Source of the DNA: Promethearchaeota archaeon
GTDB taxonomy: Archaea > Asgardarchaeota > Lokiarchaeia > Sigyniarchaeales > SOKP01
Assembly: GCA_019894975.1 (NCBI GenBank)
Contig: JAGXNO010000010.1
Location: forward strand, 18,704 to 82,703
DNA length: 64,000 bases
Direction of reading: 5' to 3'
The first letter of the stretch is position 1; each line of letters opens with the position of its first letter. Positions 19,160 through 24,022 of the stretch are shown here, in pieces. Position numbers and translations under genes: made by a program. The notes below the pieces were generated by a model. The model had not been told where the DNA came from and did no database searches. It was given only the letters and a program-made list of their open reading frames with translations.

Positions 19160-19374
19160 AAATTTATCTCCATAATTGGTATAAAATTCAAATTAAAATA
19201 ATTTTAAGATGAATTCCTTATAAATATTTTAATTTGATTATCTTTAATAATATTTTCAAAATCATAATATAAAAACTTAGACTTCGATTTCTTAAATTTA
19301 ATCTAAAAGATGTATTAGAATCCTTCCAGATTTTTCCCTTAAAACCAAAAATATGGAGAATTACTCGTCAGTTC

Positions 19375-19875
19375 TTAAGTATCTTTTAAAATGATACTTC
19401 TGGCATAATTAATTAGACCACCTTTAGATAAGATCTCTTCTATAAAAGAGGGCATCTTATTAACTTTAATTTCAACATCCTTAGAAAGATTCTTTATCAT
19501 CCCCTCATTAAATTTGATATCTATTTCATCGTCTGTGTTTATAAGCTCAATGTCAGAAAGCTCAATTATGGGGAGACCAATGTTTATCGCATTTCTAAGA
19601 AATATCCTTGCAAAAGAGGATGCAATTATACACTTAATTCCTGCAGATTTAAGGGCAATTGGTGCTTGCTCTCTACTTGAACCACATCCAAAATTCGATC
19701 CCGCTACGATTATGGTATAATCGTGTTTATTTTTTTTCTCAATGAATTTTGCATCTAAATCTTCCATACAATGTTTAGCTAGATACTCAGGATCAGAAAC
19801 CGTTAAGTATCTAGCAGGAATGATAAGGTCAGTATTTATATCCTTCATATCATATTTTATAACTTTTCCAATCAT
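19375..19875 (-). CDS. leuD: 3-isopropylmalate dehydratase small subunit
   Basis: DINTDLIIPARYL, AGSNFGCGSSREQAP, SFARIF.RNAINIGLP, GGLI. Confidence 0.93.
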   Translation of the reverse strand: MIGKVIKYDMKDINTDLIIPARYLTVSDPEYLAKHCMEDLDAKFIEKKNKHDYTIIVAGSNFGCGSSREQAPIALKSAGIKCIIASSFARIFLRNAINIGLPIIELSDIELINTDDEIDIKFNEGMIKNLSKDVEIKVNKMPSFIEEILSKGGLINYARSIILKDT

Positions 19876-19885
19876 AAGATTCCCT

Positions 19886-21160
19886 CTATAAAGATTCTGG
19901 TGAAGTAATATACCCTTTTATGGCAGAGGCGGCAGCGATTGCAGGATTTGACAAATATATTTCACTTTCTGGATGTCCCATCCTACCAGTAAAGTTCCTA
20001 TTTGTCGTCGATATCGCTTTTTCTCCAGCAGCTAGGATCCCCATGTGTCCTCCTAAACAAGGACCACAGGTAGGTGTTGAAAAAATTGCACCAGCGTCAA
20101 TAAATATCTCAATTAATCCTTCCTTTAATGCTTGAAGATATATATTCTGAGTGCCTGGGATGACAATACATCTAACTTTGTGATGAATTTTTTGATTTTT
20201 CAAAATATTAGCAGCAATTCTTAAATCCTCTATACGACCATTTGTACAAGAACCTATTATTGATTGATCTATCTCCACCTTCATATTATCTACTTCTGAA
20301 ATGGACTTGGAATTTTCAGGCAACGGAGGAAGTGCAACCTGGGGTTCTATATCTTTGCATTCAAATTCTATAATTTCACTATAACCAGCGTTTTTATCAC
20401 TCTCATAAATTTTATAATTAGTTTTTCCTACTTTTTCTAAGTAATCTCTCGTGATTTTATCAGGTGTTATAATTCCGTTCTTCGCTCCCGCTTCAATTGC
20501 CATATTACACATTGTGAGTCTATTATCCATAGATAGGTTTTTAATAACATCTCCAGTAAACTCCATTGCTTTATAAGTCGCCCCATCAACTCCTATTTTG
20601 CCAATTGTATATAAAATTAAATCCTTTCCCGAAACCCATTTGTTCAAACTCCCAGAATAAACAAATTTTATCGATTCAGGTATTTTAAACCAGCACTTTC
20701 CTAATGCCATTGCAACACCCAAATCTGTGGAACCTACTCCAGTTGAAAAAGCACCAAGAGCCCCATAAGTGCAAGTATGAGAATCTGCACCAACAAAAGC
20801 CTCTCCAGGTCCTACCAAACCTTGTTCAGGTATGAGACAATGTTCAATTCCACCACGACCTACTTCAAAGTAATTCGAGATGTCATATTTGTAAGCAAAC
20901 TCTCTAAGTGTTTCACATTGTTTTGCTGAGGCAATATCTTTATTTGGTGTAAAATGATCAGGAGTTAAAATTATCTTAGTTTTATCAAAGAGACTTTTAT
21001 TTGATCCTTCAATCACTTTTTCAAACACTTCAATTGCAATAGGGGCTGTAATATCGTTAGCTAAGCATTTATCTATCTTGGCTAATATAAAATCTCCAGC
21101 AGTAGCAGACTTGTTTTCACAATGATCTCTTAAAATTTTCTCGGTTATTGTTAAGGCTAT
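19886..21160 (-). CDS. leuC: 3-isopropylmalate dehydratase large subunit (424 aa, apparent ATA start)
   Basis: [42 protein letters not shown]; conserved N-terminus [10 protein letters not shown]..ANDITAP lies upstream of the ORF-track start and begins at ATA after SD GGGGAGA and an in-frame TGA. Confidence 0.93.
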
Positions 21161-21228
21161 GGGTATCTCCCCTTTTCAACACTCAAATTCTACCTAATGA
21201 TTAACTTATAAGAATACAAGAGTGTTTA

Positions 21229-22857
21229 TTAATTCTTAGATGCGTTTTTTTTCTTGAATCGCAACAATTTATTTAATCCTTTTAACAACGAGAGCACAGA
21301 ACTCATTACAATATCCTCATGGGTTGCACTTGCTTTTACAATGTGATTACTTTCAATATCCATAATTTCAATCGTTGAATGACCTAGGGCTTCAGTTCCT
21401 CCTGTTATCGCATCAATTTGATAATTCAATAATTTAATTTTACTCATAGGTTCAAAGCATTTAATAATTGCGTTGACTGATGCATCAACAGGTCCGACCC
21501 CAATTGATGAGGCGACTTTTATGATACTATTTCCATTATCATCAATCTTTAAACGAACTGTAGATGTGGGTGTAATAGAGCCAGTTAAAACAGTTAATTC
21601 TTCAAGTTTTACAAATTGATCCTCTTCGGGTAGTTCTCCGATAACATCTTTGAGTATTGCAAAGAAATCTTCTTCTTTAACCTCATGTCCTTTGTCACCA
21701 AAAGCCTTAACATGCCCCATGATATTAGAAAATTGGTCATCCGAAGTATGAATACCTAAATCTTCTAATTTTGCCTTAAGTGCATGCCCTCCAGTATGTT
21801 TCCCTAACTTTATCGATTGCTTAATAATGTCTTCTACATTATCGGTGCGTTTAATTCCTATTAATTCAGGTGTTATTGGTTCGTATGCACGAGCATGTTG
21901 AATCATTGCATGAGCATGAATACCTGATTCGTGTGCAAAGGCATTTTGACCAATTAGAGGAGTCAAACGTCCAATTGTGATTTTTCCCCCACATAAGCTT
22001 TCTACTAATTTTGCTGTTGGAAAAATCAATCTTGTATTTATATTCATCGGGATCCTATATAAAGCATATAGAGACATGGCAGTTTCTTCAAATGACGCAT
22101 TTCCTGTTCTTTCTCCTAATCCTAATATTGTTGTTTGGGCTTCGGAAGCACCATTTTCAAATCCGGCTATTGTATTTGCCACACCCAAACCAAAATCATT
22201 ATGACAATGTACCGCAATCCTTACATCTTTAGGTAATGATTCATAATTTTTTCTCACGATATATCCATATGCAGTTGGAGATATTGTACCTACAGTATCA
22301 GGAATATTTATTCGAGTAGCTCCGCTTTCGACAGCAGCTTGATTCACCTTAATTAAATAATCTAAATCTGTACGTGTCGCATCTTCAGCTGAAAATTCAA
22401 TTTCAGAATAATGTTCTTTTGCATAAGAAATCAATTCTATAACACTATTAAGAACTTCTTCTCTCGTCATTTTAAGCTTTTCTTTTAAGTGTAAGTCCGA
22501 GGTTGCAATAAATACATGTATCGAATCCATATCTGCTTCAATAACCTTATCAATATCAACTTTTTTAATACGAGCTAACCCTATTATTTCTGAATCTAAC
22601 CCTAGCTTAGAAATCTCCTTACAAGCTTCAAAATCACCCGGAGATATTACTGGAAATCCCGCTTCAATAACATCAATACCCAATGCATTTAATGATTGGG
22701 CTATAGATATTTTTTCTTTAAGAGCAAAACTAATTCCTGGCGTTTGTTCCCCATCACGAAGTGTCGTGTCGAAGAAGTATGCTTTTTTGGGCAGGATTAA
22801 ATCTCCTCGAATTTTTTCCATCATATCGGAAACCATTATATCACTTTTTTCATTCAT
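21229..22857 (-). CDS. leuA: 2-isopropylmalate synthase (LeuA/CimA family) with C-terminal regulatory domain
   Basis: FDTTLRDGEQTPG, HCHND.G, GLGER.GNA, AFAHESGIH, GKHTG, GVGPVDA. Confidence 0.9.
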   Translation of the reverse strand: MNEKSDIMVSDMMEKIRGDLILPKKAYFFDTTLRDGEQTPGISFALKEKISIAQSLNALGIDVIEAGFPVISPGDFEACKEISKLGLDSEIIGLARIKKVDIDKVIEADMDSIHVFIATSDLHLKEKLKMTREEVLNSVIELISYAKEHYSEIEFSAEDATRTDLDYLIKVNQAAVESGATRINIPDTVGTISPTAYGYIVRKNYESLPKDVRIAVHCHNDFGLGVANTIAGFENGASEAQTTILGLGERTGNASFEETAMSLYALYRIPMNINTRLIFPTAKLVESLCGGKITIGRLTPLIGQNAFAHESGIHAHAMIQHARAYEPITPELIGIKRTDNVEDIIKQSIKLGKHTGGHALKAKLEDLGIHTSDDQFSNIMGHVKAFGDKGHEVKEEDFFAILKDVIGELPEEDQFVKLEELTVLTGSITPTSTVRLKIDDNGNSIIKVASSIGVGPVDASVNAIIKCFEPMSKIKLLNYQIDAITGGTEALGHSTIEIMDIESNHIVKASATHEDIVMSSVLSLLKGLNKLLRFKKKNASKN

Positions 22858-22893
22858 TATTTTTGACCTTCTTAAATTTCTTTATTTCTTAAC

Positions 22894-23003
22894 AATCCTT
22901 TTACCGTTGTGAGAAAAGTAATGTAAATTAATCCTCACAAGGAAAAGGATTTATAATAATAAGTTTAAATCTAATTCACGTAAACACAATCCTAGTGAGG
23001 AAT
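22894..23003 (-). promoter_or_regulatory. Candidate leucine attenuator with alternative RNA helices 1:2 and 2:3
   Basis: Seg1 UCCUCACUAGGA (23001-22990) pairs 11/12 with seg2 UCCUUGUGAGGA (22943-22932); seg2 AUCCUUUUCCUUGUGAG (22950-22934) alternatively pairs with seg3 CUCACAACGGUAAAAGGAU (22913-22895). Confidence 0.7.
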
Positions 23004-23058
23004 AACACTTCGAAATATTTCTTAAGTTAGATTCGAGTGATGGGTGAAGTGTTCTCAT
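22951..23058 (-). CDS. Putative leu operon leader peptide (35 aa, 11 Leu)
   Basis: MRTLHPSLESNLRNISKCYSSLGLCLRELDLNLLL*; 8 Leu in the last 14 codons; TATA-like TTTTATAAAA at 23092-23083; further in-frame ATG at 23073. Confidence 0.72.
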   Translation of the reverse strand: MRTLHPSLESNLRNISKCYSSLGLCLRELDLNLLL

Positions 23059-23264
23059 TCTCAATAATCTCATAGTATTGTATTTTATAAAATAAATTGC
23101 TTGTAGTTTTAAAAATATTACGATAAATTCTTCTCAAATTCTTATTAATTCTGACAGAATCCTTAGTACAAATTTAAATAAAATTATATGGGGAACTTTA
23201 TTCCTTAACGCTTTTTATACCAATCTCATTTTATTCATTTAGAAACAATTTGGTTTAAATAAAA

Positions 23265-23945
23265 ATGAGAAAAGCAAATAAAATATTAATTGGAACCTTT
23301 GCTTTAATGATACTATTTACCATAGTAAGCATAAATACGGCGGTTGCTGCAGATACATCAGTTGAAGTAAATGATGATCATTATCAAGCAAGAATACAAG
23401 CAAATAACAGTGTAATGTTTACATTTCGACAGAGGACAAGACTTTCATTTAGTTCAACAGTGAACATGGATGTAGATATTAATTGTGATGCTTTAAGAAT
23501 TGGTGTGAAATCGTTCGAAATTGAAGTTGATTGCGATCAAGACATGGCAATGAACATGACTTGTACTGAAGAACAAGCTGAATTAGGATTATTGTTGGGA
23601 AATAGAACCACAGTACGAAACCGACATAGATATTTGTACCAGGAAGGCTTTTGTATTTCACTACAATGTAATTACTCCGGTGATTTTCAAGCTAAACTAA
23701 AAATCGAAGCAAACAATCAAAATCGCATGGGAACATGGGCATACTATGACGAGGTTTCAGAGGAATGGGTTTCAGTTCCAACCTCCATAGAAGACGGTTA
23801 TTTAGTTACTGAGACAGACCATTTTTCCTATTGGACTATATTAATCCCTGAATCCGATAATAATTTCGTATTTTACATCGGTTTAATTGGTATTGTAGGG
23901 ATTATAGCCGTAATATCAGTTATATATCTTAGAAAACGAGATTAA
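23265..23945 (+). CDS. Surface protein: signal peptide, beta-rich ectodomain ending in TDHFS, C-terminal TM anchor
   Basis: Signal MRKANKILIG..AVAA; WAYYDE..EWVSVPT..ETDHFSYWTIL; TM followed by RKRD. Confidence 0.8.
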   Translation: MRKANKILIGTFALMILFTIVSINTAVAADTSVEVNDDHYQARIQANNSVMFTFRQRTRLSFSSTVNMDVDINCDALRIGVKSFEIEVDCDQDMAMNMTCTEEQAELGLLLGNRTTVRNRHRYLYQEGFCISLQCNYSGDFQAKLKIEANNQNRMGTWAYYDEVSEEWVSVPTSIEDGYLVTETDHFSYWTILIPESDNNFVFYIGLIGIVGIIAVISVIYLRKRD

Positions 23946-24022
23946 AAGCAAAGAGAAGTTTAAATATTTTTTTTTTATTTTTTAGATAAACATATGTAGG
24001 AATAATAATAACATAAAAATAA

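Follow-up and report, generated by a model that had tools for sequence, protein, structure and literature searches.

In a 64,000-nucleotide (nt) stretch of DNA from a Promethearchaeota archaeon of the Lokiarchaeia (GenBank assembly GCA_019894975.1, contig JAGXNO010000010.1, positions 18,704 to 82,703; hereafter the window), we describe an element upstream of the leucine biosynthesis gene leuA that consists of a short upstream open reading frame (uORF) ending in a run of leucine codons and an RNA hairpin that begins immediately after its stop codon. Both parts recur before leuA in all 58 distinct Promethearchaeota sequences with LeuA identities of 64-93%, and with a probability of roughly 85% we take the element, from comparison of these sequences, to be a leucine-sensing leader of the leuA-leuC-leuD mRNA. 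The way in which the leader would act on expression is less certain, and several outputs are weighed below.

The element was first pointed out in an original prediction, made from the letters of the window alone, which proposed a leader-peptide leucine attenuator composed of a TATA-like promoter, a 35-codon Leu-rich uORF and three segments (seg1 to seg3) forming mutually exclusive helices, and which suggested looking for the uORF and for helix covariation among relatives and comparing its Leu content with that of other ORFs. The uORF and the TATA-like motif are present exactly where they were placed, with the Leu counts that had been given. They lie in a 407-nt intergenic region between leuA (22857-21229, minus strand) and a divergently oriented plus-strand gene (23265-), and the encoded peptide, MRTLHPSLESNLRNISKCYSSLGLCLRELDLNLLL, contains 11 Leu, 8 of which fall within the last 14 codons, the final codons being TTA-TTA-TTA-TAA. 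A second in-frame ATG at 23073 would give a 40-codon version, and the alignment of relatives favours the ATG at 23058. The parts of the leader, in the order of transcription, are as follows.

23083..23092, minus strand: TATA-like box of the leader promoter, TTTTATAAAA, about 25-34 nt 5′ of the uORF ATG.
22951..23058, minus strand: leader ORF with ATG at 23058 and TAA at 22953-22951, 35 codons plus stop, Leu-rich and probably leaderless (from sequence and relatives).
22990..23001, minus strand: seg1, UCCUCACUAGGA, codons SSLG, which pairs at 11/12 positions with the distal 5′ arm of the hairpin (22943-22932).
22954..22995, minus strand: Leu cluster, LGLCLRELDLNLLL, with three TTA codons (22962-22954) directly 5′ of the stop.
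22932..22950, minus strand: pyrimidine-rich 5′ arm of the hairpin (seg2), beginning at the first base after the stop (minimum free energy, MFE, fold).
22916..22931, minus strand: A/U-rich hairpin loop (MFE fold).
22895..22915, minus strand: purine-rich, Shine-Dalgarno (SD)-like 3′ arm of the hairpin (seg3; MFE fold).
22858..22894, minus strand: A-rich 37-nt spacer carrying the SD of leuA, AGGU (22869-22866), 8 nt 5′ of the ATG (from sequence).

A Leu-rich tail of this kind is rare in the genome, which has 3.93 Mb and a GC content of 31.7%. Among 17,029 ATG-started ORFs of 20-60 codons that were scanned for Leu tails, 53 end in LLL and 6 additionally hold at least 8 Leu in the last 14 codons. 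The leuA leader is the only intergenic one of these six; the other five were rejected as leaders, being located within longer ORFs or lacking a gene downstream. The leader ORF exceeds chance, because only 6 of the 17,029 ORFs are comparable and, above all, because it recurs 5′ of leuA in all 58 distinct related sequences.

This recurrence was determined by collecting leuA orthologues from 40 related genomes and from a GTDB-species collection and extracting their 5′ regions, which gave 58 distinct Promethearchaeota sequences with LeuA identities of 64-93%. The conserved Leu-rich uORF that had been proposed as a check was found in 58/58 of these regions, with a tail of 3-9 Leu followed by a stop codon, mostly 87-99 nt upstream of the leuA ATG. 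Counted from the proximal ATG its median length is 34 codons, and 30-45% of the residues are Leu. Conservation rises toward the stop: about half of the sequences have Leu at codons -7 to -13, and the last four codons specify Leu in 51, 54, 56 and 55 of the 58 (88-97%). The terminal run uses all six Leu codons (TTA, TTG, CTT, CTC, CTA, CTG) of both the UUR and CUN families; TTA, the commonest Leu codon of the genome, makes up 71% of the codons in the run versus 46% genome-wide. All three stop codons are used among the 58 uORFs, and the N-terminal two thirds of the leader peptide diverge between clades. Because these N-terminal two thirds vary and all six Leu codons occur, the trait under selection is, as read from the alignment, the presence of Leu codons at a fixed place and not the peptide or a nucleotide word. 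In five leuA orthologues that belong to the same order but are more distant (L012 and L014-L017; 57-66% identity, mostly GC-rich), the upstream 400-450 nt contain no such uORF, and neither of the LeuA paralogues (cimA-like) in the genome is preceded by a Leu-run leader.

The second conserved part is the hairpin. In the window the dominant structure of the region is a hairpin at 22950-22895 with a folding energy of -20.2 kcal/mol, corresponding to the predicted seg2:seg3 stem. An MFE hairpin starts 0-5 nt after the uORF stop in 58/58 sequences, ends at +43..+60 and ranges from -11 to -28 kcal/mol, with a mean z of -3.7 against dinucleotide shuffles; the distance from its end to the leuA ATG is mostly 34-43 nt (median 37). 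The arms themselves vary, with 42 distinct 8-mers among the paired 5′ bases, and MAFFT with RNAalifold gave no consensus structure on the 58 leaders or on trimmed hairpins, an 8-bp outer stem emerging only in the L001 clade. Because the arms are too variable to be aligned by sequence, we relied on alignment-free arm energies and on a hand-given structure. Cognate arms pair at -20.6 kcal/mol versus -12.7 kcal/mol for non-cognate arms (permutation z -16.7), and for 35 sequences the cognate arm is among the top 3 of 58 partners. When 25 hairpins are aligned with MAFFT and an 8-bp outer stem is supplied by hand, 77.7% of the cells are paired versus 73.1% in shuffles, 21 cells show double changes versus 10.1, and the covariation score is 0.345 versus 0.270, each value being reached in 0/500 shuffles. 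Stem pairs 2-8 are more than 90% pyrimidine (Y, 5′ arm):purine (R, 3′ arm), mostly CG and UA swapped between sequences, and the contrast with shuffles and non-cognate arms is modest because such Y:R-oriented stems let foreign arms pair fairly well. The predicted stem is therefore both kept and covarying across the family, in line with the covariation check proposed for it. A cmscan search of 22000-24000 against Rfam (E<=10) returned no leader family, only two matches at chance level (snoZ161_228 and RMST_3).

The adjacency of hairpin and stop would place the structure within reach of a ribosome on the terminal Leu codons. When the 9 nt following the stop are masked, which is the stretch that a ribosome should cover while its A site holds the last Leu codon, the hairpin loses half of its stability, going from -19.6 to -9.3 kcal/mol.

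The signals around the two start codons are also shared. TATA-like hexamers peak at -35..-31 relative to the uORF ATG and are present in 40/58 relatives, this bin holding 71 matches compared with mostly 10-20 (maximum 30) in the other bins upstream of -25. Genome-wide, the peak ahead of start codons lies at -32..-28 for TATA-like words and at -14..-12 for SD-like words; an SD-like 4-mer starting at -16..-9 of leuA is found in 48/58 relatives, at the position of the genome-wide SD peak. A leaderless first cistron followed by SD-led later cistrons is the usual pattern of archaeal operons. By these motif positions the uORF transcript is probably leaderless, as had been proposed from the TATA-like box in the window; the family-wide TATA peak at leaderless distance supports the proposal. 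Together with leuA's own SD it would point to a single transcript for uORF and leuA, although TATA-like motifs also occur before leuA. A search for RNA sequencing runs covering 19300-23300 listed none.

Further leaders of the same design were encountered in an unbiased scan, in which 1,261 intergenic uORFs were ranked by how strongly any one amino acid is enriched over the last 12 codons. Rank 1 is a Cys tail (..SCCCSTCCC) located 99 nt before a cysK/M-like PLP enzyme (TIGR01136, 267 bits, below the cut-off), and rank 2 is an 18-codon uORF with a Trp tail (..NWCWQWPWRSR) located 149 nt before TrpB2 (NF009057, 641 bits). An Ile-run leader (..TSIIIIR) precedes, by 117 nt, a second, MupA-like isoleucyl-tRNA synthetase (IleRS) of 962 aa (TIGR00392, 825 bits).

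L113:151-279 (contig C87 of genome G000), plus strand: Cys leader, a Cys-rich uORF; gene at L113:379-1380.
L157:1576-1632 (contig C98 of G000), minus strand: Trp leader, a Trp-rich uORF; gene at L157:11-1426.
L114:151-228 (contig C91 of G000), plus strand: Ile leader, an Ile-run uORF; gene at L114:346-3234.

The Cys leader was found in 3 genomes and is absent from the 69%-identical orthologue L126, the Trp leader recurs as ..WQWPWRWQ in 17 genomes of the genus, and the Ile leader recurs as ..IISTIIII in 14 genomes. A hairpin spans the stop of the Trp and Cys leaders, and its 5′ arm is made up of the regulatory codons themselves; the Cys codons UGUUGUUGU pair with ACAACAG just past it, and in the Trp leader an A/U hairpin followed by CUCUUUUU lies 3′ of the stop hairpin, then another hairpin adjoining the start codon. 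The Ile leader has a hairpin at its stop, and its 5′ GGAUGUGGA can pair with either of two partners, AUCCAC ahead of the Ile run or a downstream UCCACAUCC. A canonical 1061-aa IleRS is also encoded in the genome, on C142. uORFs with F, K, V, H, R or T tails were rejected as leaders, being located before unrelated genes (such as MFS, integrase, SerRS and AMMECR1).

Leu-run uORFs before leuA are furthermore found outside the Promethearchaeota, in Altiarchaeota (L102, L107, L109 and L110; ..LLLLLRLRA) and in three GC-rich Thermoplasmata-like metagenome-assembled genomes (L099, L103 and L104). In the latter the last codons, CUCCUCCC, pair with GGGAGGA after the stop, and this segment alternatively closes a hairpin of -29 to -36 kcal/mol that is followed by UUUU and an SD (GGUGA), which on paper is a clear three-segment design. 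Since cognate leaders also precede trpB2, the cysK-like gene and ileS in the same genome, ribosome-based amino-acid sensing appears to be their natural reading, and because the amino acid matches the downstream enzyme in four families, the sensing of charged tRNA by the ribosome would be the only economical one.

The mechanism that we infer, from translation of the uORF and ribosome stalling to the sign of the hairpin effect and the termination output, would run as follows. Transcription would start at or just 5′ of the uORF ATG, so that a ribosome could load once the 5′ end emerges. When charged tRNA-Leu is ample, the ribosome would reach the stop codon and leave, the hairpin would form, and most transcripts would not lead to full leuACD expression, most likely through premature 3′-end formation between the leader and leuA, perhaps with the help of a termination factor. 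When charged tRNA-Leu is scarce, the ribosome would linger on the last Leu codons and cover the GC-rich base of the hairpin, and leuACD would be expressed; in the window and some relatives, a stall further upstream could have the same effect by letting seg1 pair with seg2. That the element senses leucine is the claim to which our probability above applies; for the particular assignment in which the hairpin is the OFF state, occlusion by the stalled ribosome the ON state and premature 3′-end formation the output, we would give even odds.

Several observations weigh against this assignment. There is no oligo-U after the hairpin in the window, as the original prediction had itself cautioned, and only 13/58 relatives have U>=4 within 12 nt; U is enriched at +2 and +3 downstream of the hairpin (48% and 78%), after which the A-rich spacer begins. 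A terminator scan of 22500-23500 found no terminator-like site. Across the genome, gene 3′ flanks are enriched in T>=5 runs over the first 30 nt past the stop, and gene-end hairpins are at chance level (MFE -6.0 versus -5.8 kcal/mol shuffled), only 1.4% of the flanks reaching -15 kcal/mol. The ordinary terminators of this genome look like the hairpin-less oligo-T type, and we rejected the leader hairpin as one of them; because gene ends carry oligo-T and no hairpins, a hairpin terminator would be unusual here. A plain OFF hairpin also explains neither the strict asymmetry of pyrimidines in the 5′ arm and purines in the 3′ arm nor the fixed distance of about 37 nt to the leuA ATG. If the stall came at the first codons of a long Leu run, the ribosome would be too far upstream to reach the hairpin, and TATA-like motifs at -36..-26 of the leuA ATG in 29/58 sequences, within an A/T-rich spacer, leave room for a second, internal promoter before leuA.

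The missing U-run, the unexplained Y:R asymmetry and the unexplained fixed spacer keep two other outputs of a leucine-sensing leader alive. One of them, which we consider unlikely but worth serious attention, makes the CU-rich tract after the stop the effector: when naked it would serve as a putative loading or cleavage site for an FttA/aCPSF1-like factor, comparable to Rho at the tnaC stop, and it would be hidden by the stalled ribosome until the 3′ arm has been made and by the hairpin from then on, so that stall and hairpin would both mean ON. The first 20 nt after the stop are indeed 67% pyrimidine (42% U, 25% C) with a median pyrimidine run of 8 nt, the one-way Y:R orientation of stem pairs 2-8 is what an obligate CU-rich 5′ strand would produce, the ORF closes with its regulatory codons, and the hairpin lacks a following oligo-U in a genome where hairpins are not general terminators. 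Factor binding of this kind is only putative in Asgard archaea, though, the hairpin would form quickly even when leucine is plentiful and leave the factor a short time window, and no CU-rich tract follows the stop of the Trp leader. The other output would be post-transcriptional, the opening of the hairpin altering leuA translation or mRNA decay, for example by freeing the SD-like 3′ arm, about 25 nt ahead of the true SD, to serve as a standby site for ribosomes. This fits the 24 SD-like 4-mers at -44..-41 in the region of the 3′ arm, the tightly kept distance between hairpin and ATG and the absence of a terminator-like U-run. We nevertheless find it improbable: the A-rich spacer between hairpin and leuA is open, and sequestration of the leuA SD was rejected, pairing being at chance for the Leu run against the SD (z 0.39, with 0/58 below -2; -5.1 versus -5.9 kcal/mol for shuffled partners), for the 5′ arm against the SD (z -0.01) and for the Leu run against the spacer (z 0.24). 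To our knowledge there is also no archaeal precedent for standby control of this sort.

The wiring of the original prediction differs from all of these in combining seg1:seg2 with the U-rich loop as a terminator, and a ribosome stalled in the Leu cluster would mask seg1 so that seg2:seg3 forms as antiterminator. Archaeal RNA polymerase can terminate at oligo-U alone, and the predicted 11/12 pairing is strong in the window (-17.0 kcal/mol by RNAduplex, z -2.6 against the codon-shuffled ORF) and present in several close relatives (L081, -14.5; L034, -17.7; L007, -11.8 kcal/mol). Across the family, however, duplexes between the ORF and the 5′ arm are barely above chance (cognate -8.2 versus non-cognate -7.6 kcal/mol, 248/10000 permutations), the mean z against codon shuffles is -0.48 (-1.2 in the window's clade), and in the L070-L079 clade the helix is absent, with z about 0 or positive. 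The seg1:seg2 helix is real in the window and in some relatives and lies outside the conserved core. The same holds for the U-rich tract after seg2, which does occur in the loop of the window, whereas runs of U>=4 in the distal half of the hairpin are found in only 18/58 sequences. Moreover, seg2:seg3 could not act as an antiterminator at the loop tract because seg3 is still untranscribed when the polymerase is there, and the scheme makes no use of the universally conserved adjacency of stop and hairpin. The proposed leucine sensing is hence supported by the conserved Leu uORF, the covarying hairpin and the cognate Trp, Cys and Ile counterparts; the helix wiring of the original prediction is not, being the least supported of those considered, and we hold it to be quite doubtful. 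Because only the C-terminal Leu run and the stop-adjacent seg2:seg3 are universally conserved, the comparison suggests that the hairpin itself, or its CU-rich 5′ arm, is the element controlled by the ribosome. A last explanation dispenses with sensing altogether and takes the uORF for a small functional hydrophobic peptide or an AT-rich by-product, the hairpin ending its transcript before a separate leuA promoter. TTA is the commonest Leu codon (46%) of a genome with 31.7% GC, and the TATA-like motifs before leuA lie at leaderless distance from its ATG in 29/58 sequences; but what is conserved is the Leu run and its position and not the remaining peptide, UUR and CUN codons are both in use, and among the six comparable ORFs of the genome the leuA leader alone is intergenic. 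The same design moreover recurs with Trp, Cys and Ile before trpB2, the cysK-like gene and ileS, and AT bias cannot account for the Leu leaders that precede leuA in GC-rich archaea, so that we regard this explanation as very improbable.

The genes that the leader would control follow it on the same strand.

21229..22857, minus strand: leuA, 2-isopropylmalate synthase family, 542 aa (NF002085, 577 bits versus a cut-off of 517).
19886-21028 as called, true start upstream, minus strand: leuC (TIGR02083, 629 bits).
19375-19875, minus strand: leuD (leuD-family; TIGR02087, 183 bits).

The conserved N-terminus of LeuC (..LTITEKIL..) is encoded 5′ of the called GTG (window 21029-21182, minus strand), where no ATG, GTG or TTG follows the preceding stop; from the sequence, the start seems to be a non-canonical codon (ATA), or else there is a sequence error. 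The genome also holds two full-length genes similar to leucyl-tRNA synthetase, G000:C146:9240-12026 (minus strand, 933 aa) and G000:C98:141068-143851 (plus strand, 935 aa), which may be paralogues or the sign of a mixed bin, the estimated contamination of the assembly being 8.55%. No Leu-run leader was found upstream of either leuS copy in the available sequence, which for one copy comprises only 215 nt of upstream contig.

Full-text literature searches returned no paper on leader-peptide attenuation of archaeal amino-acid genes, the nearest descriptions being bacterial. We tentatively raise the possibility, while judging it somewhat more apt to fail than to hold, that ribosome-gated cognate leader peptides are a general archaeal mechanism (for Leu in Asgard archaea and at least two further phyla, and for Trp, Cys and Ile in Asgard archaea), in which a ribosome stalled on C-terminal hungry codons gates a stop-adjacent RNA element and thereby factor-dependent (FttA/aCPSF1) 3′-end formation. 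Such a mechanism would work differently from the bacterial hairpin-plus-U terminator, and it would represent the first case in which archaea put transcription-translation coupling to functional use in gene regulation, in the closest prokaryotic relatives of eukaryotes. If the leaders act as we propose, archaea use the ribosome as an amino-acid sensor. The leaders would then offer a natural system, open to mutation, in which to study how transcription and translation are coupled in archaea and how termination proceeds when it is not by oligo-U only, and they would allow amino-acid prototrophy and its regulation to be predicted simply for Asgard archaea that are uncultured.

In bacteria, attenuation by leader peptides is a textbook mechanism and requires that transcription and translation be coupled. 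The archaeal leaders resemble the enterobacterial attenuators (leuL of leuABCD; trpL, hisL, pheL) in having a short ORF in the 5′ leader rich in codons for the end product, in letting the position of the ribosome set the RNA structure, as we propose, and in the reuse of one logic for several amino acids within a genome. They differ in their archaeal host, the TATA promoter and the probably leaderless uORF, in the Leu run at the very end of the ORF, and in one conserved hairpin 0-5 nt after the stop in place of four segments, with no U-run and no match to an Rfam leader. In the tnaC-tnaAB system of Escherichia coli, the Rho site next to the leader ORF is hidden when a ribosome stalls at the end of that ORF; the stall at the last leader codons resembles the one proposed here, and the pyrimidine-rich tract directly after the stop and the lack of an intrinsic terminator are reminiscent of the leuA leader. 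Here, in contrast, hungry codons and not a nascent peptide sensing free Trp would stall the ribosome, FttA/aCPSF1 would take the place of Rho, and a hairpin covers the tract.

Among the bacterial leaders, those of actinobacteria come close in their arrangement. Seliverstov et al. (2005; PMC1262725) described attenuators before leuS and trpS, terminator-less leaders with Cys runs 'near the stop codon' and, preceding leuA, a LEU element whose Leu run is paired with the leuA SD as part of a pseudoknot. A Leu-run uORF before leuA, stop-adjacent Cys runs with no obvious terminator and leaders before aminoacyl-tRNA synthetase genes are shared features (PMC1262725), whereas the pairing of Leu run and SD is at chance in our archaeal, not bacterial, family. 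In the translational attenuation of erm and cat genes, too, a downstream hairpin is opened when the ribosome stalls in a leader ORF, as would happen here, but those hairpins sequester the SD and the start codon, and the one described here ends 34-43 nt upstream and leaves the SD open. Because the architecture, namely a leaderless uORF, a C-terminal run of cognate codons and a stop-adjacent Y:R hairpin with no U-run, differs enough from the bacterial design, it suggests that the output step is a different one.

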